The notes beneath the pieces were generated by a model. The model ran no database searches. It saw only the letters and a program-made list of their open reading frames with translations, and was not told the DNA's origin. Positions 7,380 through 25,351 of a stretch of 64,000 nucleotides of DNA are shown here, piece after piece. Location: NCBI GenBank assembly GCA_046861655.1, contig JBHIAI010000002.1:32001-96000 (forward strand). The letters run 5' to 3'. The first letter of the stretch is position 1. Each line of letters begins with the position of its first letter. Position numbers and translations under genes: made by a program. Source of the stretch: Fidelibacterota bacterium. Lineage in GTDB: Bacteria; Fidelibacterota; Marinisomatia; Marinisomatales; S15-B10.

Positions 7380-7434
7380 TGAATTGCTTGCGACCAAAGC
7401 GTCTTTTCCACTTTGAATCCCTTTGAGGTCAACT

Positions 7435-10259: not shown

Positions 10260-13051
10260 TGGAGATTTCCGTGGGATCATTTTTCGCCAATGGGGTTGCC
10301 AGAAGGGCAGGATGGATCGCGGCGTTCGTGATTTTCAGGACTCTTGGGGCCTTTCAGGCCGGGGCTATCACTCACTATCCTGTCCCTCAGCATACAGCCG
10401 ATAGACCCCTGGAGATTAAGGCTACAGTTTCCATGGCGACAGAGGTGGACAGGATGGATCTCTTCTACCGCCGGGCGGACGAAGATGGATTCATTGAGAT
10501 AGAAATGGATGTCGTCCCCGACGGATGGCAGGGTCAAATCCCCCTCGGTTATCTGACGGAGGAGGGGATCGAGTACTATATATCGGCCTCCCTGGAGGAT
10601 GGTACTGTAGTGACGTTCCCTGCGCAGGATCCCGTGGGGAGTCCCCAAACAGTGAAGATTGTCATGCCTGAAGCGTCTCAGCCGGAAATGGCGCGAAGAG
10701 AAACCATCGGTGAGGAAGCCATCCTCATTTTCAGTCCCGAGCCGGGATCCAGGGTGCCCACGGATGCCGTGCTCGTTTCGGTATCCCTTTTCCATGTGGA
10801 TTCGGTGGATGTTTCATCCGTACGGCTGGCAGTGGACGGTCAGGACGTGACGTCCCGGGCATCGGTTGGGACTGACCTGGTTGTCTACGAACCCGTGTTG
10901 ATGCCGCCGGGTTCTCACCGGGTACGTTTGACTGTGAAGACACTGGACGGTCGGGCCGTGGAGCCGAAATCGTGGTCATTCGACGTAACGGGCAAACTGG
11001 AGAAGGAAGTGGAGAGGGCTCTGACCTACGGGGGAAGGATCAACAGTGGGTATTCCCTGGATGCCATCGAGGGCCAGAGCCTGTCGATTGGGTTGACATC
11101 GGCTTCGGTGACCGGGAAGTGGCGGGGTTTAGACTTTAAGACCGATCTGAAGTTTACCACGGAGGAGGACCCCTTCAAGCAGCCCAGAAACCGGTACCAG
11201 TTCAAGGTGGATGCAGGACGGTATTTCAGTCTGAATCTGGGGGATTTCAACAGCAGGCTGTCGAGATTCACCCTGGATGGGAAGCGGGTCCGGGGTCTGG
11301 AGGCAAACCTGAAACTGGGTTGGGTGAATTTTCACCTGGTGAGAGGTGAGCTGGACCGTGTCATTCAGGGACGCCTGGGGGTGAATCAATCCCTGTTTCT
11401 TGAGAGTGTTGAGGCGACACAGAATGAACAGGATTCCACGAAGACCGACATCATCTACCGGTTGAATCGAAAGGGCTTCACCTTTCGCAAGAACATCTCC
11501 GCCGCCCGGTTGAGCTTTGGAAAAGGGAGCCGGTTTCAACTGGGGTTTAACTGGCTTAAGGCCAAGGACGACATCGGTTCCGTTCAGCAGGCTCTCGATA
11601 AGGCTCTTATCGATGTGGACCGGGATTCTTCTGGTTCAATTCCCCTGGAGATCGCCGTAGGGCAGTACGAATACGGGGAATTGAGAAGTGAGATCGACAA
11701 GAGAGGAAACTACCGGCTGGTCCTGCCCGAAACAGATTGGGAGGGGGACGCTCCTCAGGATAATATCGTTCTGGGATCAGACATTCGCTTTTTCCTGGAT
11801 CGAAAAAGGATAGGGTTTGAGGCCGGTTGGGCCTTCAGCATACTGAATAAGGACATCTGGGACGGTCCCTTCAGTCTCGCCGGCCTGGATACGCTCATGG
11901 ACGATGAGCTGGATGGCAGAGCGGGCGATATTGACATCTCGGGTTTTCCTGATCCTTCCGAATATGAGGACATTTTTGTTATCAATGAAAACATTGTGCC
12001 CCTTGTGCCCATAGACCCTGACTCCGCCCTGCTGGCGGATGATCCCCTGAAGGCGATCCTTAATATGCCTTCCCTCGCCTATTACCTTAAGGCTTCCGCC
12101 CGCTACCTTGGCAACCAGTTCAATTTCCAGTACATCAAGGTGGGGCCTGAATTCAATTCCCTGGGGAATCCCTACATTCAGGAGAATAACAGGGAATACT
12201 CCGTATCCGACCGGGTGGGGCTGTTTCGGAACAGATTCCTGGTACACGTAATCTACAAGCATCAAGACGATGACATTCTGAGAACGGTGGAGAATGTGAC
12301 CACCACCGAGACTTTCAGGACCAACCTGGGGCTCTACCCCGGGGGCGGCCTGCCCACCGTCACATTCAGTTTCCGCAATCAGGACAGGGATAACGGAAAA
12401 ACCACGCTTGATACGGTGACTGTGGACACGGCAAACGGCAGAATCGACCTGGAGGACCTGCGGGACTTCACCCGGACTACCCACACCACCGTGGGCGTGA
12501 ACCATCGCCTGGGGGCGTTGGGGATGGAGCACAATGTCTCGGTAAACTATGTTCAGCTTAAGCGTGCCGACCAGTATTACGAGGATGAGGACCGTCCCCT
12601 CCCACCCTTTTTCGAAGTGGTCGGCGGAGACAGTGTATTTGTCGATTCATCCTTCGTCTCTCCCAGTCTGAGTTCCCAGGTGACCAACGTAGCCCTGGTC
12701 ACCGACTACCCCTTTGGCCTGAGAACCACCCTTACCGTGTCCATCAACAAAAGCACCTTCGGGGAAGAAGGTAGTGAGTTATACGATTACGGAGACCAGG
12801 ACATCACGGGATTTACTCTTAAAGGGGACTATCGTATGTTGGACGGCCGCCTGGGACTTCGGGGTGGCGTGGAGATTACGAGTGGCTCGGGTATGGAGGA
12901 GTTTCGCCGTCTGGGGTTCGGAGCCGGATTCGGTTACAGAATCACCGATCTTCTCCGGTTCCGCTTTGACGGGAAACTCCGCTCCAAGAGCACCAACGGG
13001 GAGACAAAATCCAGCACCCTTCTTCGGGCCTCTTTGAATTATTCCTTCTAA
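10259..13051 (+). CDS. Large outer-membrane protein: N-terminal Ig-like domains plus probable beta-barrel
   Basis: 930 aa with signal peptide; IEYYISA Ig-like motif; alternating beta-strands; C-terminus ASLNYSF. Start codon uncertain. Confidence 0.65.
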   Translation: MEISVGSFFANGVARRAGWIAAFVIFRTLGAFQAGAITHYPVPQHTADRPLEIKATVSMATEVDRMDLFYRRADEDGFIEIEMDVVPDGWQGQIPLGYLTEEGIEYYISASLEDGTVVTFPAQDPVGSPQTVKIVMPEASQPEMARRETIGEEAILIFSPEPGSRVPTDAVLVSVSLFHVDSVDVSSVRLAVDGQDVTSRASVGTDLVVYEPVLMPPGSHRVRLTVKTLDGRAVEPKSWSFDVTGKLEKEVERALTYGGRINSGYSLDAIEGQSLSIGLTSASVTGKWRGLDFKTDLKFTTEEDPFKQPRNRYQFKVDAGRYFSLNLGDFNSRLSRFTLDGKRVRGLEANLKLGWVNFHLVRGELDRVIQGRLGVNQSLFLESVEATQNEQDSTKTDIIYRLNRKGFTFRKNISAARLSFGKGSRFQLGFNWLKAKDDIGSVQQALDKALIDVDRDSSGSIPLEIAVGQYEYGELRSEIDKRGNYRLVLPETDWEGDAPQDNIVLGSDIRFFLDRKRIGFEAGWAFSILNKDIWDGPFSLAGLDTLMDDELDGRAGDIDISGFPDPSEYEDIFVINENIVPLVPIDPDSALLADDPLKAILNMPSLAYYLKASARYLGNQFNFQYIKVGPEFNSLGNPYIQENNREYSVSDRVGLFRNRFLVHVIYKHQDDDILRTVENVTTTETFRTNLGLYPGGGLPTVTFSFRNQDRDNGKTTLDTVTVDTANGRIDLEDLRDFTRTTHTTVGVNHRLGALGMEHNVSVNYVQLKRADQYYEDEDRPLPPFFEVVGGDSVFVDSSFVSPSLSSQVTNVALVTDYPFGLRTTLTVSINKSTFGEEGSELYDYGDQDITGFTLKGDYRMLDGRLGLRGGVEITSGSGMEEFRRLGFGAGFGYRITDLLRFRFDGKLRSKSTNGETKSSTLLRASLNYSF

Positions 13052-13213
13052 ACGTTAGACGTTCAACGTTAGGCGTCTTCCGCAGTACGGTCTACGCATT
13101 ACGCCTGACGGCTCATTTCAAAATGATAATTGAAAATGGTAAATGCAGGAGTGAAGAAACCTGTGATATTGAATGATTCTACATTTTGTACTTTCCATTT
13201 TGCATTCTTCATT
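13051..13213. repeat. Degenerate 7-nt tandem repeats in inverted arrangement between convergent genes
   Basis: AACGTTA-GACGTTC-AACGTTA; TACGGTC-TACGCAT-TACGCCT; an AATG-heptad arm at 13120-13147 faces a CATT-heptad arm at 13180-13213. Confidence 0.6.
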
Positions 13214-13277
13214 GTTACGGTTCAGGTCCATCACGTCCTCAAATAATCCATAGTCAATTCTCTGTTTCTAAGCCGGC

Positions 13278-14210
13278 CTATCCCTCGAAAAGGAACAGGT
13301 CCGTATTGTCGCGGAAGGTGGAGTACAAAGCCTCCATGGAATCGATGACGAAGTAGCGATCCTGGATATCGCTGTAGTCAAACCGGGTAAGGACCACCTC
13401 CCCCACATCGAAGGGAAGGAACCTGGACCGGTTGGATTCGCCCGTGGCACAGGCGACCACGTTCATGACCTCATCATACGACGAGATGATCCCTGACCCA
13501 TAAATCTCATAATCAATGTTATTGGGGCTTTTCCGGATCTCATCGGTATGGTTCTGTTTTTTCATGACGCCGAATTCGTAGCTCCACCAGGCGAAATTTT
13601 GGAGGCGCTTCAGGTTGTGGGCAATCAGCTCGGGACCCATGCCCCGTTCATCGGTAATGAGTGCATAGCCCAGCTGGCCGATTTCCGCCAGAAAATCACC
13701 GTACTCCCTGTTGGTGAGAAAAGGAGAATGGCCCCGGATATCGTGAAAAATATCGGGTTCAGGCGTGTATTCGTCTGTGTTGCGAATGTCCTGTCCTGAG
13801 TATTTCTGCCGGAATCGCCCGGATTGACGAATGATGTCCGTAACGGGAAACTTCCGCTGACTGTTCAAGAGGAAGAAGAGATACTCATTGAGGAATCCGG
13901 CCACCGGTGTGAGCATCCAGCCGCTGGCCTGTTCCAGCACAGGAGTCAGGGTCTCGAAATTTGGCCATTCGTTCCTGGAGAGCCCCAGGGCTCTCAACCC
14001 CTGGAGGTATTCCTTCGATGCGTATTGATCAAGGGGATCCTCGAGACGATTGAACAGCCGTCGCCAGATCTCCCGTTCTTCATCACTGATAGCGCCGTAG
14101 TTCTGTTTTATGAGGTAGGGATCATTCTCCGTGAAAATCTTGATCCCTCCCACTGCGTGGGGTTTTACGTTCCTAAAAAGATGGTCGTATTTGGTGTGCA
14201 CCTCCAGCAT
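13278..14210 (-). CDS. phhA: Phenylalanine 4-hydroxylase (biopterin-dependent aromatic amino acid hydroxylase)
   Basis: YTPEPDIFHDIRGH (two iron-binding His), WWSYEFG (Glu ligand), IYGSGIISS and DIQDRYFV. Confidence 0.85.
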   Translation of the reverse strand: MLEVHTKYDHLFRNVKPHAVGGIKIFTENDPYLIKQNYGAISDEEREIWRRLFNRLEDPLDQYASKEYLQGLRALGLSRNEWPNFETLTPVLEQASGWMLTPVAGFLNEYLFFLLNSQRKFPVTDIIRQSGRFRQKYSGQDIRNTDEYTPEPDIFHDIRGHSPFLTNREYGDFLAEIGQLGYALITDERGMGPELIAHNLKRLQNFAWWSYEFGVMKKQNHTDEIRKSPNNIDYEIYGSGIISSYDEVMNVVACATGESNRSRFLPFDVGEVVLTRFDYSDIQDRYFVIDSMEALYSTFRDNTDLFLFEG

Positions 14211-14306
14211 GCACGGGAATTTACAACACAAATGATTTTTGTAAACCCCTTTATGGGGACCTTCCAGACGTCAGCTCCTGCCTCCGGCAGTGCAAAACCT
14301 TTTTTC

Positions 14307-14335
14307 TTGACATTTATTGGAAACGGGTTTACAAT
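14307..14335 (+). promoter_or_regulatory. Near-consensus sigma70 promoter of the motor operon
   Basis: TTGACA (14307-14312), 17-nt spacer, TACAAT (14330-14335), 54 nt upstream of GTG 14390. Confidence 0.75.
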
Positions 14336-14389
14336 TGTGGGAGCTCGATTGGTTTCCTAATCGTTTCGGGTTAAATCCGAGGTAATGGC

Positions 14390-15511
14390 GTGAATAAGTT
14401 TACTCAGTCTATCTGTACCTTTCTCGTAGTCTGCTCATTTGTCGCAACCGGGTATGCCGCTGACACGTACCGGATACAGGGGGTGATCCTCGACAGTGGT
14501 GGCGACAAGGTGGGCGGTGCACAGGTGGTTCTTTTAGACGCGGACGGTAACGAGGCAGACCAGACCTCCTCTTCAAAAGGCTTCCTGGGAAAAGGGAAGT
14601 TCGAGTTCGACGATCTCAATCCGGGCCGGTACACGGTGAAGGCGACGGCAGGGGAGGCAGGTTCGGCCTCCCTCGAAGTGGTGGTGGCCGAGGAAGACCG
14701 GGAAATTGAATTGACCCTGGCCCCTGTGGGGAAAGGTGAAGAAAACGGCGGTCAGGAAGAAGGTGAAAGAATTCCCTCGGGGCGGGATGAATATGTCCTG
14801 AGCGAAATCAGTTTCGAACTGAAAAAACTAGGGGCTGAACTGGATCATCTTGGGAGCCAGATCAGGGATCTGCAAGCGAAGAGTGAGATGTGGACCAACC
14901 CCCTGTCCATCTACTCCAAGGAGATCATCCTGGAAAACGGCAGCACCGTTTTCGGGAAGGTCGTGTATCAAGATGAAGATATTCTGAAAGTACAGACCCT
15001 GGTGGGAAATCTGGTTATCGACCGATCCCAGGTGGTTCGCATAGTGGAGAATGTTCAGGCGGAGGAAGAACCTGAATACGTTCCCGAGCAGATCCGGGAG
15101 ACCTACAGTCCACCCCCCATGCCCAGGCTCGCCGAACCGAAGTACGTCGCCGTGACTCCTTCGGAGCGAATTCCCTCGGAGGTACGGGCGGCCAACGTGG
15201 TGCTGGTGGGTAACATTGCGGAGAATAAGGACAGGTCCGGAAACATCACCTTTCAGGGACAGCTCAAGAACCTTGGCGGCCGGCGGGCCGACTTTGTGAA
15301 GGTCAACTTTGTTTTCCGCAAGAACTGGAGCGGGGAGACCAAGACTCTCACCACCTTTGCCAAGGGATCTTACCACACCTTTGATTCGGGCATTACCACC
15401 GACTCATCGTTGCTCCCCGGCGCCAGTGCCGCCTTCGAACTGGTGGTTCCTGCTGATTTTGGATCCTTCATCGGGTATTCCCCCACCATCGATTGGGAAG
15501 AGTACGAGTGA
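14390..15511 (+). CDS. Secreted multidomain protein: carboxypeptidase-regulatory-like domain, coiled coil, small beta domain, FxLYD-like domain
   Basis: Signal peptide; IQGVILD...GAQVVL...FEFDDLNPGRYTVKA; heptad helix; C-terminal GQLKNLGGRRADFVKV...LLPGASAAFEL. Confidence 0.65.
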   Translation: MNKFTQSICTFLVVCSFVATGYAADTYRIQGVILDSGGDKVGGAQVVLLDADGNEADQTSSSKGFLGKGKFEFDDLNPGRYTVKATAGEAGSASLEVVVAEEDREIELTLAPVGKGEENGGQEEGERIPSGRDEYVLSEISFELKKLGAELDHLGSQIRDLQAKSEMWTNPLSIYSKEIILENGSTVFGKVVYQDEDILKVQTLVGNLVIDRSQVVRIVENVQAEEEPEYVPEQIRETYSPPPMPRLAEPKYVAVTPSERIPSEVRAANVVLVGNIAENKDRSGNITFQGQLKNLGGRRADFVKVNFVFRKNWSGETKTLTTFAKGSYHTFDSGITTDSSLLPGASAAFELVVPADFGSFIGYSPTIDWEEYE

Positions 15512-16407
15512 ACCGTCCGGTAGCGATTCCGTTGCTCTCAGGGGCTCTTCTTATTCTATGTACCTTGACCGGGGTACTAACGGGTCAGTCCTCGTCCGGA
15601 TCTCCCGGGCCCTTGGGGGATGACATCTTCTTCCTGGACCTGGGCATCGTGATTGAACCGGGCACCGGCAAGGAAGAGGTTAACCGTCTGGTGAAGGCAC
15701 CTCCGGAGAAGGTGAAATTCTTCCTGGACAAGGAACCCAGTGGTTCCGTCTACATGGCGTCAACCCGGGAGTTGCATGAGACGCTCGCCCGGATCAGCGA
15801 CAGGATTGATGCCCTGGAGGAGTCCTTTCACCGGGAGATTACTGCTGTCCGGGTGGAGAATGGCGAGTTGCGGGAAATGGTGGCCGACCTCCTGGCCAGG
15901 GAACCCATTCTTCCCTCCCAACCTGCGGTGACCCCGGTTCCATCTTTGTCCACCCCACCCGTTTCCCGGGAGGAACAACCCGAACCGGAGGTGGAAGAAA
16001 AAGTCGTCGTTACCGCCCCTGCGGCGGACGGCTCTTTCAGCAAGATGAGATACATGAATGCCGTTTTCGCTTACCAGAGGGAGGACTACCGGGTCGCCCT
16101 GGATCATTTTTCCCGGTTGTACCTGAAGGAGCAGGATCACACCACCAGAGGAAACGTGTTGTACTGGATTGCCGATTGCTACTATCAACTGGGAGATTAC
16201 CGGAGAGCTCTCGACACCCTGGAGGAGATCAGATCCCTGGGCCGGTCGGACAAGCAGGATGACGCCCTGGTGTTGACCGGGCTGGCCTATCGCCAGATGG
16301 GTCGGGAAAACGAGGCCCTTGAGGCCTTTGATCATATCCTTCAGTACTATCCCGACAGCGAATACTTCAGGCTGGCCCGGATGGAGTTGCGGAAATCTCA
16401 GGAGTAG
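15508..16407 (+). CDS. Periplasmic coiled-coil plus TPR protein (CpoB/YbgF-like architecture)
   Basis: GTGA overlap with the upstream gene; N-terminal hydrophobic segment, coiled coil, Pro-rich linker, and TPRs (YWIADCYY, YPDSEY). Confidence 0.7.
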   Translation: MNRPVAIPLLSGALLILCTLTGVLTGQSSSGSPGPLGDDIFFLDLGIVIEPGTGKEEVNRLVKAPPEKVKFFLDKEPSGSVYMASTRELHETLARISDRIDALEESFHREITAVRVENGELREMVADLLAREPILPSQPAVTPVPSLSTPPVSREEQPEPEVEEKVVVTAPAADGSFSKMRYMNAVFAYQREDYRVALDHFSRLYLKEQDHTTRGNVLYWIADCYYQLGDYRRALDTLEEIRSLGRSDKQDDALVLTGLAYRQMGRENEALEAFDHILQYYPDSEYFRLARMELRKSQE

Positions 16408-16412
16408 TCCGT

Positions 16413-17780
16413 ATGGGTAAAACCCACAGATCCGGCGTGTTATTCCTGTTGATCTTGATGTCTGCGCCCCTGTTGGGCGTGACCCGGGTGGCGTTTACCC
16501 GTCCCGGACCCATGGTGAGAATTCCCATGACCCGCACCGTGCGGTCTCCCTATCTTTTCAGTGCAGGTTTCGGATCGGAGATTCACAATTTTTCCCCTTT
16601 CAATGTAGCCAAGGGTGTTTATTTCACCATGGACATATCCGAGAGATTCACCCTGGGATTCTCTTCAGGTCAGGGGGCGGACACCACCGCTCTGGAGAAC
16701 ATTCTGGAGTCCACCTATGCCCCCCCTGTTGAGTTCGGATTTCATTTCCAGCAGCGCGTTTACACCCGGGGAGACGTTTCTTTTAGTCTGGGCGTTCACG
16801 ATGTGGTCTTTGAGAACGCAGATGACGGCTTAAGTCTCGACCCCAAGCAACTGTCTTTTTTCGGGATTATTGGTAGTGAGAAGTCCTTCGGTGATTATGA
16901 TCTGCACACGTTTATGGGGTTTGGCACGGGAGGATTTGCCCAGACCCTCGCCACGGGTCAACCCGGAACCGCCGGGGAAGACACCGCCGGAACCCGGACC
17001 GGCGTATTCGCCGGGTTCTTGTTGAACACACCGTTCCTGCCCAAATGGGGTGGACTCGATTTTGTGGGTGAATTCGACGGCTCAGGCATCAATGTGGGAC
17101 TCCGCATCCCCCTTACCTCGGATTATCGCCTGAGTCTAGGATTCACCCACATAGAAAATTTGCCCGCTTTTTCCGAAGAACCTTATGGTCCCGATCACCC
17201 GGGTCTTGCGGTGGGGCTCGACATGTCGGTTCCGAGGGGACCGGTGGTCAGGGAGGTACCGGGTCTGCCCCGGCCCGGCGAGAGGGGCCCCGCCCCCGTT
17301 CCTGAAGCCGCCGTTCGTGACACAATCCTCTTGGCGGCCGATCTGGCAATGGCCAGACTCCGGGATTCTTTGCGGGTGGAAAAACACTACGTACGGAACC
17401 TGGCGACTCAGGTGGCCCGATTGGAGCAGAAAAGCCTCACCCTTGAAGATTCGGTGCGGGCGTTGAGGCTTGATCGGGCGGTGAGTCAAAAGAACATCAA
17501 CCTGGCCATGCAGCACCTGTCCCTTTCCCAGCGTTACGCCTTTGCGGGAGATTACCGGGCGGCTCTTCAGGAGGTGGAGACTGCCCTGGATTTGAACCCT
17601 AATCTGGCACTGGCTTACGCCCGGCGAGGGGCCATATACTATAAGTTGGGAGATATTCAACGGGCGACCATCAACTGGAATCTGGCTCTCCAGATGGATC
17701 CGGAATACGATGACGTGAGAAACATCTTGAAGGCTCTTCACGAGAACCGTTTGAAGGCCATCAGTTTCAACAAGGAGTAA
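16413..17780 (+). CDS. Putative small OM beta-barrel (YjbH-like) fused to coiled coil and TPR
   Basis: Signal peptide; beta-strand region including VGEFDGSGINVGLR; then a coiled coil and TPRs (LNPNLALAYARRGAIYY). Confidence 0.6.
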   Translation: MGKTHRSGVLFLLILMSAPLLGVTRVAFTRPGPMVRIPMTRTVRSPYLFSAGFGSEIHNFSPFNVAKGVYFTMDISERFTLGFSSGQGADTTALENILESTYAPPVEFGFHFQQRVYTRGDVSFSLGVHDVVFENADDGLSLDPKQLSFFGIIGSEKSFGDYDLHTFMGFGTGGFAQTLATGQPGTAGEDTAGTRTGVFAGFLLNTPFLPKWGGLDFVGEFDGSGINVGLRIPLTSDYRLSLGFTHIENLPAFSEEPYGPDHPGLAVGLDMSVPRGPVVREVPGLPRPGERGPAPVPEAAVRDTILLAADLAMARLRDSLRVEKHYVRNLATQVARLEQKSLTLEDSVRALRLDRAVSQKNINLAMQHLSLSQRYAFAGDYRAALQEVETALDLNPNLALAYARRGAIYYKLGDIQRATINWNLALQMDPEYDDVRNILKALHENRLKAISFNKE

Positions 17781-17788
17781 CGTTCCGT

Positions 17789-18574
17789 ATGGACATAGCC
17801 ACGCTGGTAGGCATCGTGATCGGTTTAGGTGCTATTGGAGGGGGAATCTTCGTGGCCGCTGCTGCCGCCGGTGCGGGAGCTGAAGGATTCGTTTCCCTGC
17901 CGAGTTTCCTGATCGTGTTCGGAGGCATGGTGGCCTCAGTCTCGGTGGCCTTTCCCCTGCCGGAAGTAATGAAACTGGGGGCGGCCATGGGGGCGGTCTT
18001 CAAGGGAGGTTTGATCAGGCTGGGCGAGCTGGTGGATGATGCGGTGGAACTGGCAGGAGTGGCAAGGAAGGGTGCAGCCGAACTGGAAAAGGGTGTGGGA
18101 GACATCCGAAATCCTTTCTTCAGGGATGGCGTCCAGATGGTGGTGGACGGCTATTCCGAAGAGGAATTGGTTGAGATTCTGGAAACCCGTATCAGCTACC
18201 GGGAAGTCCGGGAACGGTCCCAGGCAAGTCTGTTTCAGACCATGGGGACCATGGCGCCAGCGTGGGGGATGATTGGGACGCTCATCGGACTGGTTATCAT
18301 GCTCATGGGATTCGGTGGAGGGGGAGGAACAGAAGCTCTCGGTTCAGGCATGTCCGCCGCCCTGATTACCACCTTCTACGGAGCTGTGTTTGCCAATCTG
18401 TTCTTTCTCCCCATGGCGGCCAAGCTCAACTCGCGAATCGCTCACACCAGCACCATGCAGGCCATGCTGGTGGAGGCCGCCCGTTTGATTCATCAGAAAA
18501 AACACCCCCTTATCGTCCGGGAGAGACTCAACTCCTTCATTCCTCCCAAGGAATGGAAAAGGGAAGGGGAGTAA
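17789..18574 (+). CDS. motA: Flagellar-type stator A subunit (MotA/PomA)
   Basis: MDIATLVG start; PSFLIVFGG; ARKG..ELE; FFRDGVQMVVDG; APAWGMIGTLIGL; ALITTFYG. Confidence 0.93.
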   Translation: MDIATLVGIVIGLGAIGGGIFVAAAAAGAGAEGFVSLPSFLIVFGGMVASVSVAFPLPEVMKLGAAMGAVFKGGLIRLGELVDDAVELAGVARKGAAELEKGVGDIRNPFFRDGVQMVVDGYSEEELVEILETRISYREVRERSQASLFQTMGTMAPAWGMIGTLIGLVIMLMGFGGGGGTEALGSGMSAALITTFYGAVFANLFFLPMAAKLNSRIAHTSTMQAMLVEAARLIHQKKHPLIVRERLNSFIPPKEWKREGE

Positions 18575-18577
18575 CCT

Positions 18578-19330
18578 GTGCCGAGAAAGCCTCAACCTCC
18601 TCCTCCTGAACCGGGTCTCCCCAATTGGTTTGCCACTTTTGCCGATATGATGACGCTTCTCCTGGCCTTTTTCGTTCTTCTGGCCGCCATTTCCACCATC
18701 GATCCCGTCAAACTTCAGGCCATGGCCGATTCCATGAAAAAATCAGTGGGAAAGAAAATAGAGATGGAGGGAGCCATGAGCCTGGCCGATATCGAGAAGG
18801 CGGTTAAGGTGATGGTGTCGCAGGAACAGATGGAGGAAGCTGTGGAAGTGACCACCAGCACCAAGGGTGTCACCATCGGCATTTCATCGGACATCAGTTT
18901 CGAATCGGGTTCAGCGGACCTGAAACCCGGGATCATGCCCATTCTGGAAAAGATTGTTCCCACGATCGAGAATTCGTATTTCCAGGTGGCTGTTGAGGGC
19001 CATACTGACAACGTGCCCATTTCGGACAATATCCGGGTGCGGTTTCCCTCTAACTGGGAACTGTCCGGCGCCCGGGCGGCTTCGGTGGTCCGGGAATTGA
19101 TCGATATGGGCGTAGAACCCACACGTCTGCAGTCGGTGGGATATGCCGAATACATTCCGAGGGATCGGCCCACGGACAGGCTCATCACGGATGAGCTTAT
19201 CCTCGAGCTGAATGCAACCCCCGATCTTCAGGCCCGTAATCGCCGGGTGGAGATCACCTTTCTGGCTCCCCGGGGGGGGCCGGTGGGTAGCCACAGGGAG
19301 GAGTCGGAGCCGGAGGAGGGGGGAGAGTAA
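18578..19330 (+). CDS. motB: Flagellar-type stator B subunit (MotB/PomB) with OmpA-like peptidoglycan-binding domain
   Basis: WFATFADMMTLLLAFFVLL with the essential Asp; VEGHTD, SNWELSGARA and NRRVEI. Confidence 0.93.
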   Translation: MPRKPQPPPPEPGLPNWFATFADMMTLLLAFFVLLAAISTIDPVKLQAMADSMKKSVGKKIEMEGAMSLADIEKAVKVMVSQEQMEEAVEVTTSTKGVTIGISSDISFESGSADLKPGIMPILEKIVPTIENSYFQVAVEGHTDNVPISDNIRVRFPSNWELSGARAASVVRELIDMGVEPTRLQSVGYAEYIPRDRPTDRLITDELILELNATPDLQARNRRVEITFLAPRGGPVGSHREESEPEEGGE

Positions 19331-19357
19331 GACCTGGAGCCTAAACAAGGAGAGGTC

Positions 19358-20935
19358 ATGAAACACAGGTTGAGGGGTATCCTTGGCGGGGGAGCCGTAG
19401 TTGCCGTTTTGGCTGTCCTCGCTGTGGGGCAGGAGTCCACGTTTCTGGCTCAGAAGCTCATGCTGGAAAACGATTTAAGGAAGCGTATTACGGGAGCTCT
19501 TGAAAAAATCCTGGACGACCACCGTTACGTCCTGGATGTGACCGTGGATTTGAAGTTCACGCCCGCCGTTCGCGAGGAAGTGACATTCGCACCCGAGGAG
19601 GTCCCGGCCCAAGTAAAACCAGCTCTCAGAGAAAAGATGGGTGCTCGGGAACAACCAGAAGAGGTGGCGGGCCGGAAGAAGTCCCGGGTGACGGGACTTC
19701 CCATTCCGGGATTTGATTTTCAGGTGGAAGAGGAACCTGCGCCAGGGCTGGAGGAACCGTCTGCTGTTGAAACCGAAAAGGAGGATGAATCCGTCCAGGA
19801 GGGACCGGCCAGAAAAGGGGCCAGAGTGATCCGCCAGTCCTATACGGACATCAGTACATCCATGCCGGTGATCAGGAAGATGGAAATCAGCTGCATTCTC
19901 CCCGAGGGGTCCTCTCCTGAGCTCATCGAGAACGTTCGACAGATTATCATGGTGGCTTCCCATTTCGACCGGAGTCGCGGGGATGTCCTGAGTGTTATGA
20001 CGGCGTCGTTCAAGGAGAGAAAGGACGAGAGGACGGCGGAGGCCATCATCTTAAGAAGTATTGCGGAAAAAATTGATCAGCTTGAGGAGAGACAGGCGGA
20101 GACCGACGCTCAGGTAGTCGAGGACTGGCGCAGGGAGTTGGAACAGTGGAAACAGGAGGAATCCCGGCGCCAGGAGGAAGAACGGTCCGTCTGGCGAACC
20201 GAACTCGAAAGGCTGGAGAATGACCGCCTTCGTCGGGAATTTGAACGGGAAAAAAGAGCCATTCTGGAGCGTGATTCCCTGGAACTGGCAGCCTTAACTC
20301 AGGAAATCGATGAGTTAAGAGCCATGCTGACCACCGCCGATCTGACGCCTCAAGAGCAACAGACGGCTCAGGATCAGGTGGCGATCAAGGAGAGGAAGCG
20401 GGCTCAGATCGACTCTGTGATTGATGAGAAACTGGCTTTTCTTGAGGAGACCCGCCAGGAAATGAGGGAACTGGACAGGGCAGGAGTGAGCAATCTCCCC
20501 ATTTATCTGATGAGTGCTATTTCGCTTCTGGCCGTAGCTGCCCTGGCGGCGGTGATCATTTTCAACGGCCGGAGTCGTCCCCGTTATATGGTACCCCCTC
20601 CATGGCTCATGAGGCCGCCCAGCAAAAAAAAAGTGACTAAGGAGAAAAAAGAGGATGAGGACAAGGGCGAGGGACCCAAGGCGGCGCCGCCTCCCCCACC
20701 TCCGCCCACGCCCCCGGAACCGGAAGAAGATCCCAGTGTCCTCCAGTCAGAAATCAAATCTATGCGGCAGTCCATTGTGTCCATGAGCGTGGGACAGCCC
20801 GAGACGGCCACCGATATCGTTAAAGAGTGGTTGGAAGAAGAAGCGCCCGCACCTCCCGAGGAAGCGCCGGCGGCCGTAACTCCCCCTTCCCCCGAAGAAA
20901 AGGATGAGGGGAAAAAGAAAAAGAAGAAAAAGTAG
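19358..20935 (+). CDS. Divergent FliF-like ring protein: RBM3/S-ring domain only, long coiled coil, one TM, FliG-binding-like tail
   Basis: LENDLRKRITGALEKIL...VLDVTVDLKF and VRQII...FDRSRGDVLSVMTASF match the two halves of the FliF C-terminal ring domain. QPETATDIVKEWL matches the FliF C-terminal motif. Lies directly before fliG. Confidence 0.72.
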   Translation: MKHRLRGILGGGAVVAVLAVLAVGQESTFLAQKLMLENDLRKRITGALEKILDDHRYVLDVTVDLKFTPAVREEVTFAPEEVPAQVKPALREKMGAREQPEEVAGRKKSRVTGLPIPGFDFQVEEEPAPGLEEPSAVETEKEDESVQEGPARKGARVIRQSYTDISTSMPVIRKMEISCILPEGSSPELIENVRQIIMVASHFDRSRGDVLSVMTASFKERKDERTAEAIILRSIAEKIDQLEERQAETDAQVVEDWRRELEQWKQEESRRQEEERSVWRTELERLENDRLRREFEREKRAILERDSLELAALTQEIDELRAMLTTADLTPQEQQTAQDQVAIKERKRAQIDSVIDEKLAFLEETRQEMRELDRAGVSNLPIYLMSAISLLAVAALAAVIIFNGRSRPRYMVPPPWLMRPPSKKKVTKEKKEDEDKGEGPKAAPPPPPPPTPPEPEEDPSVLQSEIKSMRQSIVSMSVGQPETATDIVKEWLEEEAPAPPEEAPAAVTPPSPEEKDEGKKKKKKK

Positions 20936-20944
20936 AGTCAACGC

Positions 20945-21874
20945 ATGATTACCGATTACAATCGTTTGTCCGGCCTGGATAAGGTGGCCATCCTTTTCTC
21001 TGTACTGGGAGAAGGTCTGGCGGTGAAAGTTGTGAAGGGACTGGAAGAGGCGGACCTGCGGCGGATCCGGGCTCGCGTCCGTGAAATGGAGGCAGTGTCT
21101 ACGTCGGTAAAGAAGAAGGTCGTGGACCAATTCTACCTGGCGTTCGTATCCAGGAAACTGGAGGATGAGACCGGCGGAGACACCAAACGGCCCTTTGCCT
21201 TCTTGGAAAACTTAGCCGACGAACAGCTGGGAGCCCTCCTGGAAGTGGAAGAACCGAGAATCATTGCCATGGCTCTGGCTCAGGTGCCTACCGACAGGCA
21301 GGTTTTTGTGATGGCCCGCCTGACACCGGAAACGAAGGGGCAGGTGCTTATGGAAATGGGCAACCTGGGGAATGTTCCCCTGGAGGCCGTGGTCACTGTG
21401 GCTACGGATCTGGAGAAAAAATCCCACTTCCTTCCCCGTGGTGTGGACTTCTCCCGGGGAGGGGGTAAGAACGTGGCTGATATTCTTGAGAAACTTTCCC
21501 CTGAGGAAGGAGAAAAGTTTCTGGAAGCCATCGCCCGGGAGTCTCCTGACCTGGCCAAAGAGATCAAGAGATATCACCTTACCTTCGACGACGTGTTCAG
21601 ATTTCCCGACAGCCTCTTGAGGGACCTCATGAATTCGGTGGAGCTGGATACAGTGGCCTTGGCCATGAAGGGTCAATCCGAGGAGATTGTTGACCGGGTT
21701 ATCAGTAACCTTCCCCAGAAGAAACAGGCCATGTACGAGCCGGTGGAACGAGCGGTTCCCAAAAGGGAGGTGGATAACGCCAGAAAAGCCATTGTGGATG
21801 CTGCCCGGCAGATGGAAAAGGACGGACGCATTAATCTGGAAGATATTCTGGGTGGCAGCGAAATGGTGGAATAG
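20945..21874 (+). CDS. fliG: Flagellar motor switch FliG homolog (divergent)
   Basis: LSGLDKVAILFSVLG; EEPRIIA (EHPQ-like); GGGKNVADIL; LTFDD (MFxF-like); ALAMKG; EVDNARKAIV...MEKDGRI. Confidence 0.88.
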   Translation: MITDYNRLSGLDKVAILFSVLGEGLAVKVVKGLEEADLRRIRARVREMEAVSTSVKKKVVDQFYLAFVSRKLEDETGGDTKRPFAFLENLADEQLGALLEVEEPRIIAMALAQVPTDRQVFVMARLTPETKGQVLMEMGNLGNVPLEAVVTVATDLEKKSHFLPRGVDFSRGGGKNVADILEKLSPEEGEKFLEAIARESPDLAKEIKRYHLTFDDVFRFPDSLLRDLMNSVELDTVALAMKGQSEEIVDRVISNLPQKKQAMYEPVERAVPKREVDNARKAIVDAARQMEKDGRINLEDILGGSEMVE

Positions 21875-22714
21875 GTGTCTTTGTTCCGTCCTCGGTCAAG
21901 AAGCCTTCCCTGGGAAAGGACGGGAAGGCTTTTTCATATCTTTCCTGTGAGATTGGGAGCCCTGGGACTGATGGCAGTGGTGTCCACGGGTGTCTCCGGA
22001 AAACCTTCCCCCGTTACTCCGGGGGGAGAGGCCGGTTGGGAACGATCCCTCGCAGCCTCGTTTTCCACCCAGGGCGGAAACACCAATCTGTCCAGTTACG
22101 CCCTGGCCTTTACGGTGGATTATACGGGGGATCTCCGTGTAGCAGGCGTGGATTTCAACGACAGTGAGTTCCACGCGTTCGTCCGTCATAAACGGGGGAA
22201 ACTGGACAGGTCTTTATATGAAGACGATGGGAGTGCGTCCTTGCTGTTTGACATCATGGCCCATGGCAAATTCTCCCCTTTTTTCCTTTCTTACTGGGCC
22301 TACGATTCCACCACGGGCCTCGATGAACGAATTCAGCTCGGAGCTGGAGGCAAGTACACCGTCGCCGGGGGATTCTCCCTGAGCCTTGCCTATCTGTTTG
22401 AGGTGGAGGGCTATAAGGGTGAGTCCAGAACCCGGCAGTATCGATTGTCGTTTCGACCCAAGTACAAGAGGACCTTCTCCAGCGGTGTGTCCCTTAACAC
22501 CCTGGTATTCATCCAGCCCCTGGTCCTGGATCCCGGCAGATTTCTCATTGACAGCCATGTGAGTGTGACCGTTCCCACCCCGGTGAAGATACTGGCAGAT
22601 GACAAGAAACTCGAGGTGACTCTGAGGTGGAGGGAACAATTCAACTCCCGTCCCCCCGGTTCGGTCCAGAAGCGGGACAGCGATCTTGACCTTGGCCTGA
22701 TGATTTCGTTTTAG
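21875..22714 (+). CDS. DUF481-family outer-membrane beta-barrel
   Basis: GGNT near the N-terminus, LGAGGKY, FNSRPPGSVQKRD and C-terminal LGLMISF. Start uncertain (ATG 21971 is an alternative). Confidence 0.65.
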   Translation: MSLFRPRSRSLPWERTGRLFHIFPVRLGALGLMAVVSTGVSGKPSPVTPGGEAGWERSLAASFSTQGGNTNLSSYALAFTVDYTGDLRVAGVDFNDSEFHAFVRHKRGKLDRSLYEDDGSASLLFDIMAHGKFSPFFLSYWAYDSTTGLDERIQLGAGGKYTVAGGFSLSLAYLFEVEGYKGESRTRQYRLSFRPKYKRTFSSGVSLNTLVFIQPLVLDPGRFLIDSHVSVTVPTPVKILADDKKLEVTLRWREQFNSRPPGSVQKRDSDLDLGLMISF

Positions 22715-22732
22715 ATCACGGGGTAGAGTAGT

Positions 22733-24151
22733 ATGGAAAAGGAAATCCACGAGTTGAATCTGGAGGGAACCACCTTCCGGACCATCATTGAACCGTTCAG
22801 AATCAAGTCTGTGGAACCCATCCGGATCACCACCCGGGATGAGAGGGAAACGATTCTTCAACAGGCCTTCTACAATGTGTTTCTCATCCGGTCCAGGGAC
22901 GTTATCATCGATCTTCTCACCGACAGCGGTACCAACGCCATGAGTTCGGACCAGTGGAGCGGAATAATGCGAGGCGATGAGACCTACGCCGGTAGTGAGA
23001 GCTATGGCCGTTTTGAGAATACGGTCAAGGATATCTTCGGATTCAAGCATGTCATTCCGACCCACCAGGGAAGAGCCGCCGAGAGGATTCTGTTTACGGT
23101 CATGTGCCGGCCGGGAGATGTGGTTCCCAACAACACCCACTTCGACACCACCCGGGCCAACGTAGAATTCCGGGGAGCGGTGGCGAAAGATCTCCCCATT
23201 GAAGAAGGGCGAGATCCCCAGAATCCCCATCCGTTCAAGGGGAACATGGACCTGGCAAAACTGGAGGCACTGATCACCCGGGAGGGGAAGGAAAAGATTC
23301 CCCTTTGCATGGTGACGATCACCAACAACTCCGGGGGAGGCCAGCCGGTGTCCATGGAGAACCTACGGGCCACGAAGACCCTGGTATCCCGGTATGGGAT
23401 TCCCCTCTACCTGGACGCATGCCGGTTCGCTGAGAATGCTTATTTGATTAAGTTAAGGGAAAAAGGGTACGAGAATAAGCCGGTCAGGGAGATCGTGGCG
23501 GAAATGATGAGCTACGCCGACGGGTGCACCATGAGTGCCAAAAAGGACGGCCTGGCCAACATCGGAGGATTTCTCTGCACCAACGATGATCTTCTGGCCC
23601 GGCAGGAAAGGGACCTTCTGATTCTCACTGAAGGCTTTCCCACCTACGGGGGCATGGCGGGAAGGGACCTGGAGGCCATCGCCATCGGTCTGGAAGAGGC
23701 GATTCACGAAGATTATCTCATCTACCGGATTGCCGAAACCCAGTACTTGGGGAAACACCTGGAGGAAATAGGGTTTCCCATTGTGCAACCCCCGGGAGGT
23801 CACGCCGTATACGTGGATGCTAACGCCACGTTACCCCATATGGATCCTCTGGAATACCCCGGTCAGGCTCTGACGGCTGAACTTTACCTTGCAGGGGGGA
23901 TCAGGGCGGTGGAAATTGGGTCCGTCATGTTCGGGAAGGAAGACCCGGAGACGGGAAAGGAACAACCGGCGGCCATGGAGTTGGTTCGACTTGCCATTCC
24001 CCGGCGGGTGTACACGCAGAGTCATATCGATTATGTCATTGAGGTGTGCAAGAGAGTCTGGAAACGCCGGGAATCTCTCAAAGGGTTTCGAATCACTGAA
24101 CAGGCCCCGTTTCTTCGTCACTTTACCGCTAAGTTTGAACCCCTTGATTAG
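22733..24151 (+). CDS. tnaA: Tryptophanase (tryptophan indole-lyase)
   Basis: EPFRIKSVE, DLLTDSGT, PLP motif MSAKKD and LRHFTA; tyrosine phenol-lyase would have MSGKKD and LRFFTA. Confidence 0.88.
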   Translation: MEKEIHELNLEGTTFRTIIEPFRIKSVEPIRITTRDERETILQQAFYNVFLIRSRDVIIDLLTDSGTNAMSSDQWSGIMRGDETYAGSESYGRFENTVKDIFGFKHVIPTHQGRAAERILFTVMCRPGDVVPNNTHFDTTRANVEFRGAVAKDLPIEEGRDPQNPHPFKGNMDLAKLEALITREGKEKIPLCMVTITNNSGGGQPVSMENLRATKTLVSRYGIPLYLDACRFAENAYLIKLREKGYENKPVREIVAEMMSYADGCTMSAKKDGLANIGGFLCTNDDLLARQERDLLILTEGFPTYGGMAGRDLEAIAIGLEEAIHEDYLIYRIAETQYLGKHLEEIGFPIVQPPGGHAVYVDANATLPHMDPLEYPGQALTAELYLAGGIRAVEIGSVMFGKEDPETGKEQPAAMELVRLAIPRRVYTQSHIDYVIEVCKRVWKRRESLKGFRITEQAPFLRHFTAKFEPLD

Positions 24152-24157
24152 CCGGCG

Positions 24158-25342
24158 ATGCCAGGTACCAGAAAAATCCATCATCTCCTGATCGCGGGTG
24201 CCTTGATTCTGACCGCGTGCACCGAGTCCCCGAGAAAGTTTCACGACCGGGCCTATGTTGCCGACACCCACAATGATGTCCTTCTGCGGGTCATGAGGGG
24301 GGAGGACATTGCCGTGAGAACTTCATCGGGGCATTCCGACGTTCCGAGGTTGGAAGAGGGGGGCGTCGACATGCAGGTGTTTTCGGTCTGGGTGGACCCG
24401 GCCACCTATGGGTCTGGCAGCTCTTTTCAAAGGGCGAACGAGATGATCGATTCTCTGGTCAGCCTTGCGGAAAGAATTCCCCAGCGGCTGGAGATTGCCC
24501 GCTCCTACGACGATCTGGAACGGCTCGAGCGGGAAGGAAAACTGGCGGCTGTCATTGGCGTTGAAGGGGGACACGCCATCGAAAACAGCCTGGAAAAGCT
24601 AAAGGTTCTTCACCAGCGGGGAATGCGCTATCTTACCGTCACCTGGAATAACTCCCTGGATTGGGCCAGCTCAGCCAAGGATGAGACAAAGGGAGATATG
24701 GGACCCTTCGCCGGACTCAATAAGTTCGGCAGGGAGGTGATCCGTTCCTGCAATGACCTGGGGGTGATGGTGGATGTGTCACACGCGGGGGAACAGACCT
24801 TCTGGGATATCATAGGGAGCACCACCCGTCCTGTTATCGCCTCCCACTCTTCCGTGTATGCCATCTGTCCCCATTTTCGCAACCTCAAAGATGACCAGCT
24901 TCAGGCCATCAAGGATAACGGCGGTGTGGTGTTTGTTAATTTTTTCCCGGGTTATCTGGACAGCACCTTCGAAGGCCGGTACCTCCAGGTGGAAAAAGCC
25001 CATCAGGAGGAACTGGATTCCCTGGCGGGGATCTATTCACGGGACTCTGAGGATTTCTGGTATGGACGGATTCAGATCCTTCGGGATGATCTTTCCACCG
25101 TGGCACCCCCCGTGGACCTCCTCATCGATCACATTGACTATATCGCAAACTTGATCGGTGTTGACCATGTTGGACTGGGATCGGATTTTGATGGGGTCTC
25201 GGTCCTGCCCCGGGGAATGGAAGACGCCACCCGGGTTCCCCTGATTACGGAAAAACTCCTCCAACGGGGTTACTCCAGGAGGGATGTAAGGAAGATCCTG
25301 GGGGAGAATTTCAAGCGTGTTTTCCGGGAGACCGTAGGGTGA
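24158..25342 (+). CDS. Membrane dipeptidase (peptidase M19), lipoprotein
   Basis: Lipobox ILTAC; DTHND, VEGGH, VDVSH, ASHS and GLGSDFDG. Confidence 0.9.
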   Translation: MPGTRKIHHLLIAGALILTACTESPRKFHDRAYVADTHNDVLLRVMRGEDIAVRTSSGHSDVPRLEEGGVDMQVFSVWVDPATYGSGSSFQRANEMIDSLVSLAERIPQRLEIARSYDDLERLEREGKLAAVIGVEGGHAIENSLEKLKVLHQRGMRYLTVTWNNSLDWASSAKDETKGDMGPFAGLNKFGREVIRSCNDLGVMVDVSHAGEQTFWDIIGSTTRPVIASHSSVYAICPHFRNLKDDQLQAIKDNGGVVFVNFFPGYLDSTFEGRYLQVEKAHQEELDSLAGIYSRDSEDFWYGRIQILRDDLSTVAPPVDLLIDHIDYIANLIGVDHVGLGSDFDGVSVLPRGMEDATRVPLITEKLLQRGYSRRDVRKILGENFKRVFRETVG

Positions 25343-25351
25343 TCCGGGGAG

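Follow-up and report, generated by a model that had tools for sequence, protein, structure and literature searches.

To our knowledge, FliG and the FliF ring have been treated as specific to the flagellum, and flagellar-type stators as specialised for motility. The type IX secretion system (T9SS) and gliding machine of Bacteroidota combines a 5:2 ion motor (GldLM), a periplasmic ring (GldKN) and small outer-membrane barrels (PorV/SprF). As far as its main text goes, PMC12505986 sets the FIT/TGI4 flagellar stators against the generic ion transporters ExbBD, TolQR, AglRQS and ZorAB and treats FIT stators as motility-specialised, with no Marinisomatota term. An RBM3-like 30-mer ring is described for SpoIIIAG of Bacillus in part of PMC11481574.

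Here we analyse a locus within 64,000 nucleotides of a Fidelibacterota genome (the window). Its gene content, and its occurrence both with and without flagellar genes, suggest an ion-driven envelope machine of a kind not yet described. The literature searched, mostly at listing level and in main texts, gave no description of this system or its parts.

Organization and conservation of the operon

An ORF check placed eight genes at 14390-22714, all on the + strand (Table 1). Eight co-oriented genes with gaps of -4 to 27 nt had been claimed in the initial annotation, and the coordinates agree: taking the GTG at 15508 as the start of gene 2, whose longest ORF begins at 15493, the gaps are -4, 5, 8, 3, 27, 9 and 0 nt. 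The claimed domains were also recovered (MotA_ExbB, E 4e-28; MotB_plug and OmpA; YscJ_FliF_C, E 1.5e-6; FliG_N/M/C; TPRs; DUF481, E 2e-5). The promoter candidate ranked top among 11 sigma-70-like sites found in 13000-26500, and Rfam gave 0 matches in the window, hence no known riboswitch.

Table 1. Features of the locus, numbered by position in the window
Feature	Position	Strand	Description
Promoter candidate	14307..14335	+	sigma-70-like; 11/12 consensus matches, 17 nt spacer
Gene 1 (A1)	14390..15511	+	exported, 373 aa; Ig-type domains
Gene 2 (B2)	15508..16407	+	exported, about 299 aa; coiled coil and CpoB/YfiO-like TPR
Gene 3 (C3)	16413..17780	+	455 aa; predicted outer-membrane beta-barrel and C-terminal TPR
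motA	17789..18574	+	PomA/MotP-like stator A subunit, Na+-type Thr triad
motB	18578..19330	+	ion-binding Asp, plug, OmpA-like peptidoglycan-binding domain
Gene 6 (F6)	19358..20935	+	mini-FliF, 525 aa; YscJ_FliF_C only
fliG paralogue	20945..21874	+	309 aa; FliG_N/M/C domains
DUF481 barrel gene	21875..22714	+	co-transcribed candidate; not a conserved part

Co-orientation cannot set the limits of the system, because tnaA and then a dipeptidase gene follow the DUF481 gene just as closely (gaps of 18 and 6 nt). tnaA, present in 18/58 loci, was rejected as a part, as was the upstream FecR/930-aa cluster. The DUF481 gene follows fliG in 7/58 loci, with at least 1.2 kb of sequence past fliG in 55/58, and was rejected too; seven of the eight genes first proposed stand as an intact unit without this barrel.

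The order A1-C3-motA-motB-F6-fliG is common to all classes sampled and is kept in 54/58 loci, the other four being interrupted by contig ends. The linkage of envelope genes to motAB-F6-fliG, whose loss had been named beforehand as evidence against a joint system, is therefore retained. Against a single unit, A1-B2-C3 lie 0.5 Mb away from motA-fliG in one closed chromosome. B2 is present in 52/58 loci, missing or doubled in some lineages, and is an accessory member of the operon. Within a non-flagellated genus, dN/dS is 0.035-0.113 for the six core genes and 0.21 for B2, compared with 0.074 for tnaA; the seven genes without DUF481 are under purifying selection.

Stator genes

The operon MotA (261 aa) is matched by MotP at 1e-54 and by ExbB at 0.008. 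Roles of MotA residues and a three-Thr criterion for Na+ stators are given in part of PMC10374538. When residues were mapped by alignment motif, PomA itself being absent from the alignment, equivalents of PomA R88, K89, E96 and D114 were found in 95, 90, 92 and 92 of 95 operon MotAs, and those of T158, T185 and T186 in 95/95 each. The R232 equivalent is lost in 95/95, and the R88-E96 spacing is shorter by one residue in nearly all. MotB carries a plug and an OmpA-like domain, and its ion-binding Asp is present in 106/106 operon sequences. Judged by the Thr triad, MotA/MotB would be of the Na+ type.

The genome also carries a second, stand-alone motAB pair (contig C192). In a MotA tree of 27 rows, in which the E. 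coli and ExbB branches are saturated, the flagellar and stand-alone MotAs of the phylum group to the exclusion of the operon MotAs (88/95), which do not form one resolved clade.

Rotor genes

F6 consists of an N-terminal signal, an RBM3/S-ring domain with a collar insert, a helical stalk of about 160 residues, one membrane helix (about 375-406), a Pro-rich tail and a FliG-binding helix with a conserved Trp at its end. Pfam found YscJ_FliF_C and no YscJ_FliF in F6, hence no RBM1/RBM2, and against TIGR00206 it scored 27.8 bits (cut-off 129.75). The family profile matches both RBM3 and the C-terminal helix of an M-ring protein of solved structure (E 6.8e-5). Across loci the stalk ranges from 45 to 207 residues, while the length of C3 is steady.

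The operon FliG has N, M and C domains over the Pfam cut-offs, lies below the TIGR00207 cut-off, and has a deletion of about 27 residues between N and M. The Gly-Gly linker and the M and C domains are retained, and a basic residue occupies the R281 position in 107/107 operon FliGs. The torque helix is shorter by four residues in 98/107, with a Pro break in the shortened helix; eight deep-branching operon FliGs have a full flagellar-type helix. Co-evolution of this shortening with the MotA deletion was considered and dropped, since the MotAs of these eight are already short-spaced. The EHPQR motif, which has a FliM-binding role (PMC6290876), is eroded: its His and Gln are outside the six commonest residues in the 107 FliGs.

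Envelope genes

A1 is ordered as a variable N-terminal transthyretin-like Ig domain, a 38-residue helix, a small beta domain, a Pro-rich linker and a very conserved, Ig-like (FxLYD-like) C-terminal domain. In distant families A1 is a predicted lipoprotein: an N-terminal Cys behind a hydrophobic stretch was seen by eye in 18/19 loci (L158-L176), and a strict pattern found it in 9/55. Look-alikes in the atlas are mainly from Fidelibacterota. PDB sequence matches were to the variable N-terminal domain only, and this domain also took up the matches of the fold search, which barely probed the conserved C-terminal part.

C3 is predicted to comprise an N-terminal plug, a 12-strand outer-membrane beta-barrel, a 75-residue periplasmic helix and a C-terminal TPR. 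An AlphaFold model (pLDDT 79.7) supports the barrel, whose structural matches are KdgM (Z 14.4), LpxR (14.0), FapF (13.9) and a PorV-type chain, 6h3i_F (13.0); by atlas features C3 is YjbH-like (0.93). No Pfam barrel family matched 10 C3 barrel segments, and the PorV family gave no match to C3.

Flagellar genes and distribution of the operon

In the draft assembly of the source genome (198 contigs, 92.8% complete), searches for FlhA, FliP, FliMN_C, CheW and Flagellin_N gave 0 matches, as did the FHIPEP family, used as the marker of an injectisome export gate (SctV/SctRST). When FlhA/B and FliP/Q/R of a relative were searched by tblastn across the whole assembly, no match was found, nor did FlgC, E, F, G, H, I, K, L, FliD or flagellin give one at E 1e-3. 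The absence of other flagellar genes, originally claimed for the window, hence extends to the assembly, and the lack of a flagellar set elsewhere speaks against the operon genes being relocated flagellar copies. Together with the kept linkage, this supports the earlier proposal of a self-contained stator-FliG-ring machine coupled to periplasmic and outer-membrane parts.

Among 301 genomes of Marinisomatota (SAR406), C3 and F6 are both present in 207 and both missing in 82; C3 alone occurs in eight and F6 alone in four. FliP is present in 45/207 operon-positive and 18/82 negative genomes (22% each), leaving 162/207 positive genomes without it. Since the two groups do not differ in this frequency, presence of the operon does not depend on the flagellum. 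Single-contig genomes include one with the operon and no FliP (G084), one with both (G166), and one, G192, with no match for F6, C3, the A1 core or MotA. In genus g17 (genomes of 0.8-1.1 Mb) the operon is found in 0/27, a loss confounded with genome reduction.

Flagellated relatives retain their own fliF and fliG in a separate cluster, usually with motAB. The flagellar cluster of genus g21, which is flagellated, yielded no motAB, and the MotAs found in this genus are operon-type (G029, G054) and stand-alone-type (G054) only. Hence this stator type may also serve a flagellum, which counts against the machine proposed below.

FliG phylogeny and a sister system

Operon FliGs form a single clade that follows taxonomy. 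Grouping them with the phylum's flagellar FliG was rejected (p-AU 0.0005), so the operon FliG, placed in the tree that the initial annotation had called for, is not a duplicate of the flagellar one. Its sisters (95/90) are RBM3-FliG fusions of Oceanospirillales and Elusimicrobiota, of which the literature searched gave no description. Thalassolituus-like loci have five genes: a barrel-like gene, a TPR lipoprotein, the fusion, motA and motB. Like the operon rotor, the fusions run signal-RBM3-membrane helix-FliG (profile match to F6, 97.9%), and the Thalassolituus-like ones adjoin motAB, a C3-type TPR and a barrel-like gene. Against the C3 TPR profile this TPR reaches 56-60 bits, compared with at most 22 for any other TPR protein of the source genome. 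The fusions differ in being one polypeptide with a short stalk, another barrel and no A1/B2 match; Pfam gave no family for the Thalassolituus-like barrel segment.

Two FliG M+C trees, unrooted, thinly sampled and with long branches, place 10/10 flagellar FliGs (from Bacillota, Actinomycetota, Pseudomonadota and Marinisomatota) and 29/29 non-flagellar rotors on opposite sides of one branch (94/86, 95/83). It seems doubtful that the rotors without a flagellum form an ancient line sister to the flagellar motor or go back to a precursor of it; a ring, FliG and stator engine would then have acted on the outer membrane before joining the type III export gate. Early derivation from the flagellum plus fast evolution is a possible alternative.

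Proposed machine and alternatives

We consider it likely that the operon encodes a Na+-driven rotor-stator machine that is independent of the flagellum and acts on an outer-membrane module. F6 would oligomerise through RBM3 into an S-ring-like ring, spaced from the inner membrane by the long helical stalk, and its cytoplasmic tail would bind FliG in a ring without FliM/FliN. With MotB on peptidoglycan, ion flow through MotA5B2 would turn MotA against FliG and drive the ring, in a single fixed direction with no switch or chemotaxis input. Without an export gate or rod, force would pass periplasmically to the TPR-tipped C3 helix with A1 and B2, and the varied stalk at steady C3 length fits poorly with a fixed F6-C3 contact. 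The output may, tentatively, lie at the cell surface, where the first candidate would be that C3/A1 complexes are moved or gated so that the cell can attach to particles or translocate on them; energising export or uptake is a fainter possibility, and envelope remodelling is improbable. The ecology suggests this output weakly, given the confounded loss in g17.

The altered rotor-facing surfaces (R232 equivalent, R88-E96 spacing and torque helix) speak against rotation, and the Pro-broken helix and lost R232 equivalent would suit a device in which FliG docks on and unplugs MotAB, acting as an envelope-stress sensor or a gated channel for Na+/H+, or in which TonB/TolA-like short strokes occur. 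C3/A1/B2 would then make the contact with the outer membrane. Part of PMC10374538 proposes that the torque helix activates the stator, the operon includes a CpoB-like TPR partner, and TolB passed its cut-off in 0/5 genomes tested. However, TolB was likewise not found in the operon-less G192, and the source genome carries an ExbB-TonB cluster as well as a CpoB-like gene apart from the operon; a Tol replacement is not favoured. Retention of the ring-building RBM3, the FliG M/C domains and the Gly-Gly linker, and the eight deep FliGs with full torque helices, also make a non-rotary role unlikely. Because the parts are flagellar homologues, they might instead be a rotor paralogue and spare stators with a role in running or regulating a flagellum, left over after its loss; the flagellum of g21 may have the operon-type MotAB as its sole stator or as one of two, and 10.1101/2024.12.05.626484 offers, in part of its text, the interpretation that rotor genes are retained because they cost little. 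The many operon-positive genomes without FliP, strong purifying selection within a non-flagellated genus, the lack of RBM1/RBM2 in F6, an operon FliG that is no duplicate of the phylum's flagellar one and the fixed linkage to non-flagellar envelope genes leave such an accessory module very unlikely.

Substitution for GldLM as the phylum's T9SS energiser is equally hard to credit. SprA passed its cut-off and T9SS C-terminal domains were found in 5/5 genomes tested, GldM was found in 0/5 by a search with no positive control, and C3 resembles a T9SS translocon barrel (6h3i_F). C3 is, however, equally close to several unrelated 12-strand barrels, and G118 has SprA without the operon. In the single-contig G192, SprA and 96 matches to the C-terminal domains occur without the operon, which largely refutes an obligatory role. 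Moreover, the sister system sits in Gammaproteobacteria, where we know of no T9SS. A decaying remnant or an assembly or binning artefact, conceivable in a draft of this kind, is refuted by open frames, dN/dS near 0.1, gene order kept across classes and single-contig examples, and has almost no probability left.

Comparison with known systems

The operon occurs in about 70% of the sampled genomes of an abundant marine phylum, and matches to fliG or motAB alone will mis-score such genomes as motile. If the rotor-stator reading is true, this would be the first natural case of a stator-FliG gear at work outside a flagellum. Genetics and cryo-ET are feasible, because homologues of the sister fusion are recorded in the cultured Thalassolituus hydrocarboniclasticus (WP_260997285.1) and Bermanella marisrubri (WP_007018997.1).

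With the flagellar motor core the operon shares a homologous stator (plug, ion-binding Asp, peptidoglycan anchor) and FliG N/M/C. F6 has the RBM3/S-ring, second membrane helix and FliG-binding tail of FliF, and the fliF-fliG order is common to both, whereas RBM1/RBM2 and the first membrane anchor are missing and a long stalk lies under the ring. FliM/N, export gate, rod, hook, filament and Che proteins are absent, the torque surfaces are remodelled, the distribution is independent of flagellar genes, and the fixed partners are instead an outer-membrane barrel-TPR protein, a TPR protein and an Ig-domain (lipo)protein.

MotA/MotB share with FIT stators the plug, the ion-binding Asp and the OmpA-like domain; for the five rotor-facing residues the picture is mixed, as motif-based mapping places equivalents of four in 90-95 of 95 MotAs and of R232 in 0/95, with the shorter R88-E96 spacing. 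Like the generic ExbBD, TolQR, AglRQS and ZorAB, the operon stator appears to power a non-flagellar envelope task, but those systems lack FliG or a FliF ring. The plug and OmpA domains of MotB and the MotP-like MotA also set it apart from Tol-Pal/Ton, and the genome's ExbB-TonB cluster is separate. It differs from Zorya in its short MotA (ZorA2, 15.4 bits; cut-off 700) and in having envelope genes as conserved neighbours. SpoIIIAG offers an RBM3-only ring outside the flagellum, as F6 would form, but without a FliG tail or stator. The T9SS/gliding machine may follow the same working logic of 5:2 ion motor, periplasmic ring and small outer-membrane barrel; it shows no positive sequence link, its genes remain where the operon is missing, and the motor of the operon is MotAB with a cytoplasmic FliG gear.

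Operon layout and conservation

The eight ORFs of the initial annotation were all re-found, with the same order and gaps, in the source genome (G000, a draft of 2.06 Mb that is 92.8% complete), where the window spans positions 32001-96000 of contig C46. They encode an exported Ig-domain protein (A1), a CpoB-like TPR protein (B2), a predicted outer-membrane barrel-helix-TPR protein (C3), MotA, MotB, a mini-FliF with RBM3 only (F6), FliG and a DUF481 protein; Pfam and NCBIfam name MotA, MotB, FliG, the FliF C-domain, TPRs and DUF481 among them. Because tnaA and dipeptidase genes prolong the co-oriented run downstream with short gaps, membership was judged by conservation. The sampled genomes gave 59 loci, of which L057 was set aside as a different fusion type. 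Linkage of the envelope genes with motAB and fliG was borne out: A1-C3-motA-motB-F6-fliG is complete in 54 of the remaining 58 loci, and a contig end cuts the other 4. B2 (52 loci), tnaA (18) and DUF481 (7) are variable, and in one closed chromosome A1-B2-C3 lie apart from motA-fliG.

Of 61 genomes of the order, 54 have a FliG_C match over cut-off, 9 one for FlhA and 11 one for flagellin. At the phylum level (301 genomes of Marinisomatota, each at least 80% complete), profiles matched F6 in 211, C3 in 215 and FliP in 63; C3 and F6 were both present in 207, both absent in 82 and discordant in 12. The operon is missing from all 27 genomes of the streamlined genus g17.

Features at the operon and at related loci
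Feature	Location	Strand	Remark
413 aa protein, FecR-domain protein, 930 aa probable barrel protein	window 7423-13051		Paralogous trio on contig C179; linked to operon in close kin only
Biopterin-dependent aromatic amino acid hydroxylase	window 13278-14231	-	Divergent from operon
Sigma-70-like site	window 14307-14335		Upstream of operon; good match (sequence motif)
Tryptophanase/tyrosine phenol-lyase family gene	window 22733-24151	+	After operon; adjoins fliG in 18/58 loci
Second, stand-alone motA-motB pair	G000:C192:8265-10581		L200, L219; cf. L203, L204, L215, L109
A1 paralogue, 530 aa lipoprotein	L218:2083-3675 (G000:C190)		Behind HEAT-like lipoprotein; small beta domain and C-terminal Ig-like domain as in A1
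Separate CpoB-like gene	L217:698-2815 (G000:C183)		Directly after rodA
C3 of closed chromosome G309	L205:8048-9790		581 aa frame; profile match ends at position 369, so TPR end is altered or frameshifted
Third rotor type (509-513 aa fusion: signal, ring, membrane helix, FliG)	L057:1836-5528		Genera g21 and g15; also L148, L150, L151; after accA-like gene, then two long coiled-coil proteins with C3-type TPR ends

Flagellar genes elsewhere in the genome

The lack of other flagellar genes, first noted for the window, holds across G000 at its 92.8% completeness, in family searches and in searches with a relative's proteins. Families of FlhA, flagellin, FliP, FliM/N and CheW had zero matches in the whole genome, while positive controls matched. 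G034, a relative from the same order, has a complete flagellar cluster; with this cluster as query, 18 proteins had no match in G000 at E 1e-3 (FliF, FlgC, E, F, G, H, I, K, L, FliD, flagellin, FliM, FliN/Y, FliP, Q, R, FlhA and FlhB). The FliG and MotB queries matched the operon, and the MotA query matched the second motAB pair. FliI, FlhF, FlhG, FliA and part of FlgD also matched in G000, presumably through paralogues from ATPase, GTPase, sigma-factor and Ig-domain families.

In its spacing the stand-alone MotA is of flagellar type, and in the MotA tree it falls with the flagellar MotAs of the phylum. The pair nevertheless persists in the non-flagellated G000, where it may be a second stator for the rotor of the operon. 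In G000 and G054 it precedes a gene for an exported protein of 192-199 aa with no family assignment; in G000, G034 and G049, enolase and a short conserved gene lie nearby.

Stator, rotor and envelope parts

Operon MotA is nearest to MotP/PomA models, with scores under their cut-offs. The three threonines given as the stator Na+ site in PMC10374538 are invariant in 95 distinct operon MotAs. With PomA numbering transferred by motif, not by alignment to PomA itself, R88 is kept in 95, K89 in 90, E96 in 92, D114 in 92 and R232 in 0 of these sequences; the R88-E96 spacing is one residue less than in flagellar copies. In operon MotB, the ion-binding Asp is present in 106/106, and the plug and peptidoglycan-binding domain are kept. 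Such features are given as marks of flagellar-type (FIT) stators in PMC12505986.

F6 opens with a hydrophobic signal at its N-terminus, followed by RBM3 with its collar insert and by a helical stalk; a single membrane helix then leads to a tail whose last element is a conserved, Trp-bearing helix. Its stalk has 162 residues in G000 and 45-207 across 19 distant loci, and the family profile matches a solved M-ring protein at two places, RBM3 and the last helix. PMC11481574 assigns the S-ring to RBM3-collar and the inner M-ring, which encircles the export gate, to RBM2; F6 has no RBM1/2, in step with the absent export gate. Between N and M, operon FliG is about 27 residues short; the first Gly of its Gly-Gly linker is conserved in 106/107, and the His and Gln of the FliM-binding motif are gone (motif as in PMC6290876). 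Moreover, its torque helix is four residues shorter in 98/107, and 8 deep-branching copies have the full flagellar-type helix.

The predicted fold of C3 comprises a barrel of 12 strands, an N-terminal plug, a helix of 75 residues and TPRs. Structural matches of the barrel to KdgM, LpxR, FapF, NanC and a T9SS barrel are about equal, and by language-model features it resembles YjbH; for GfcD, an E. coli relative of YjbH, an N-barrel of 12 strands is predicted (PMC11494523). We treat the YjbH/GfcD likeness as no more than a lead. A1 is built of small domains in series; the C-terminal, Ig-like one is almost invariant, and distant A1 members resemble lipoproteins. Shorter A1-like proteins occur in G084 and G309. 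B2 is accessory. A family search of G000 gave no TolB over cut-off, despite the CpoB-like gene after rodA.

Related rotors and trees

Searched against 1.84 billion representatives, the F6 ring-domain profile found F6 itself, true FliFs and fusions of an N-terminal RBM3 to FliG M/C (28 of 150 listed matches scanned). One fusion is from Elusimicrobiota; Oleispira, Thalassolituus and Bermanella share another family of them. For this second family, each of the 3 loci examined, of 9 metagenome loci, carries a barrel-like gene, a TPR lipoprotein, the fusion, motA and motB. By inspection, with part of the sequence scanned, no other flagellar gene was seen in the 10 kb flanks of two of these loci, L182 and L185. 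A full and separate flagellar region is described for Oleispira antarctica (PMC3759055). The C3 TPR profile gave 56-60 bits for the TPRs of this fusion type, 37-45 and 20-37 bits for the first and second TPRs adjacent to the third rotor type, within Marinisomatota, and 22 bits for the best other TPR protein of G000, so a single TPR type goes with the rotor in three lineages. No stator gene adjoins the third type at its four loci; operon-type motAB occur alone elsewhere in G029 and G054 (L202, L213). One ring-FliG fusion (P0237) has an additional TPR after FliG, on the cytoplasmic side.

In a 34-row tree, operon FliGs fall into a single clade (99/100) and branch in line with taxonomy; a long stem parts them from the flagellar FliGs of the same genomes. 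In two 39-row alignments, the first fitted to the operon profile, they group with the Oceanospirillales fusions (92/82 and 95/90), and one branch sets the 10 flagellar FliGs apart (94/86; 95/83). Grouping with the phylum's flagellar FliG was rejected (p-AU 0.0005), the group having been defined once the first tree was known. Resolution was poor in the MotA tree.

Interpretation

The operon probably encodes a switchless engine in which a Na+-driven stator and a FliG ring would drive an outer-membrane module. We infer the output of this machine, and it is the weakest link of the reading. Against an engine stand the altered torque surfaces and a stalk whose length changes without matching change in C3. 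A non-rotary gate or puller is an alternative that we consider unlikely. A remnant or artefact is barely credible, with dN/dS against the nearest genome of 0.035 for motA, 0.074 for tnaA, 0.078 for fliG, 0.085 for C3, 0.092 for motB, 0.106 for F6, 0.113 for A1 and 0.21 each for B2 and DUF481.

That the operon serves as a flagellar accessory is quite improbable. FliP occurs in 45/207 genomes with C3 and F6 versus 18/82 with neither (22% each; kin are not independent, hence no statistical test), and single-contig genomes include all three states: operon without FliP (G084), both (G166) and neither (G192). A further point against the engine reading comes from the flagellated genus g21 (assemblies 92-94% complete): no cluster-borne motAB was found there, and its flagellum may be driven by stators of the operon type or the stand-alone type. 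The flagellar cluster of G029 (C7, L145-L147) is without motAB, and its FliG is on a long branch. Equally small is the chance that the operon energises T9SS: SprA and T9SS substrates occur with or without it, which largely rules out an obligatory T9SS motor. In G000 (C101), G084, G207, G192 and G118, a translocon of SprA type scored over cut-off, and each genome had 3-96 T9SS C-terminal domains; GldM had no match in these five genomes in a search with no positive control.

No description of the system was found in the literature searched (supplements and subscription papers lay outside its scope), nor in the accessible parts of PMC13277936, PMC9012183 and PMC10359470. The closest published statement, in the accessible part of 10.1101/2024.12.05.626484, is that filament-less rotor genes may have another function. 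Judged from sequence, the operon would work like the flagellar torque core, but it falls outside the flagellar system, and likewise outside the injectisome, Ton/Tol and Zorya systems.
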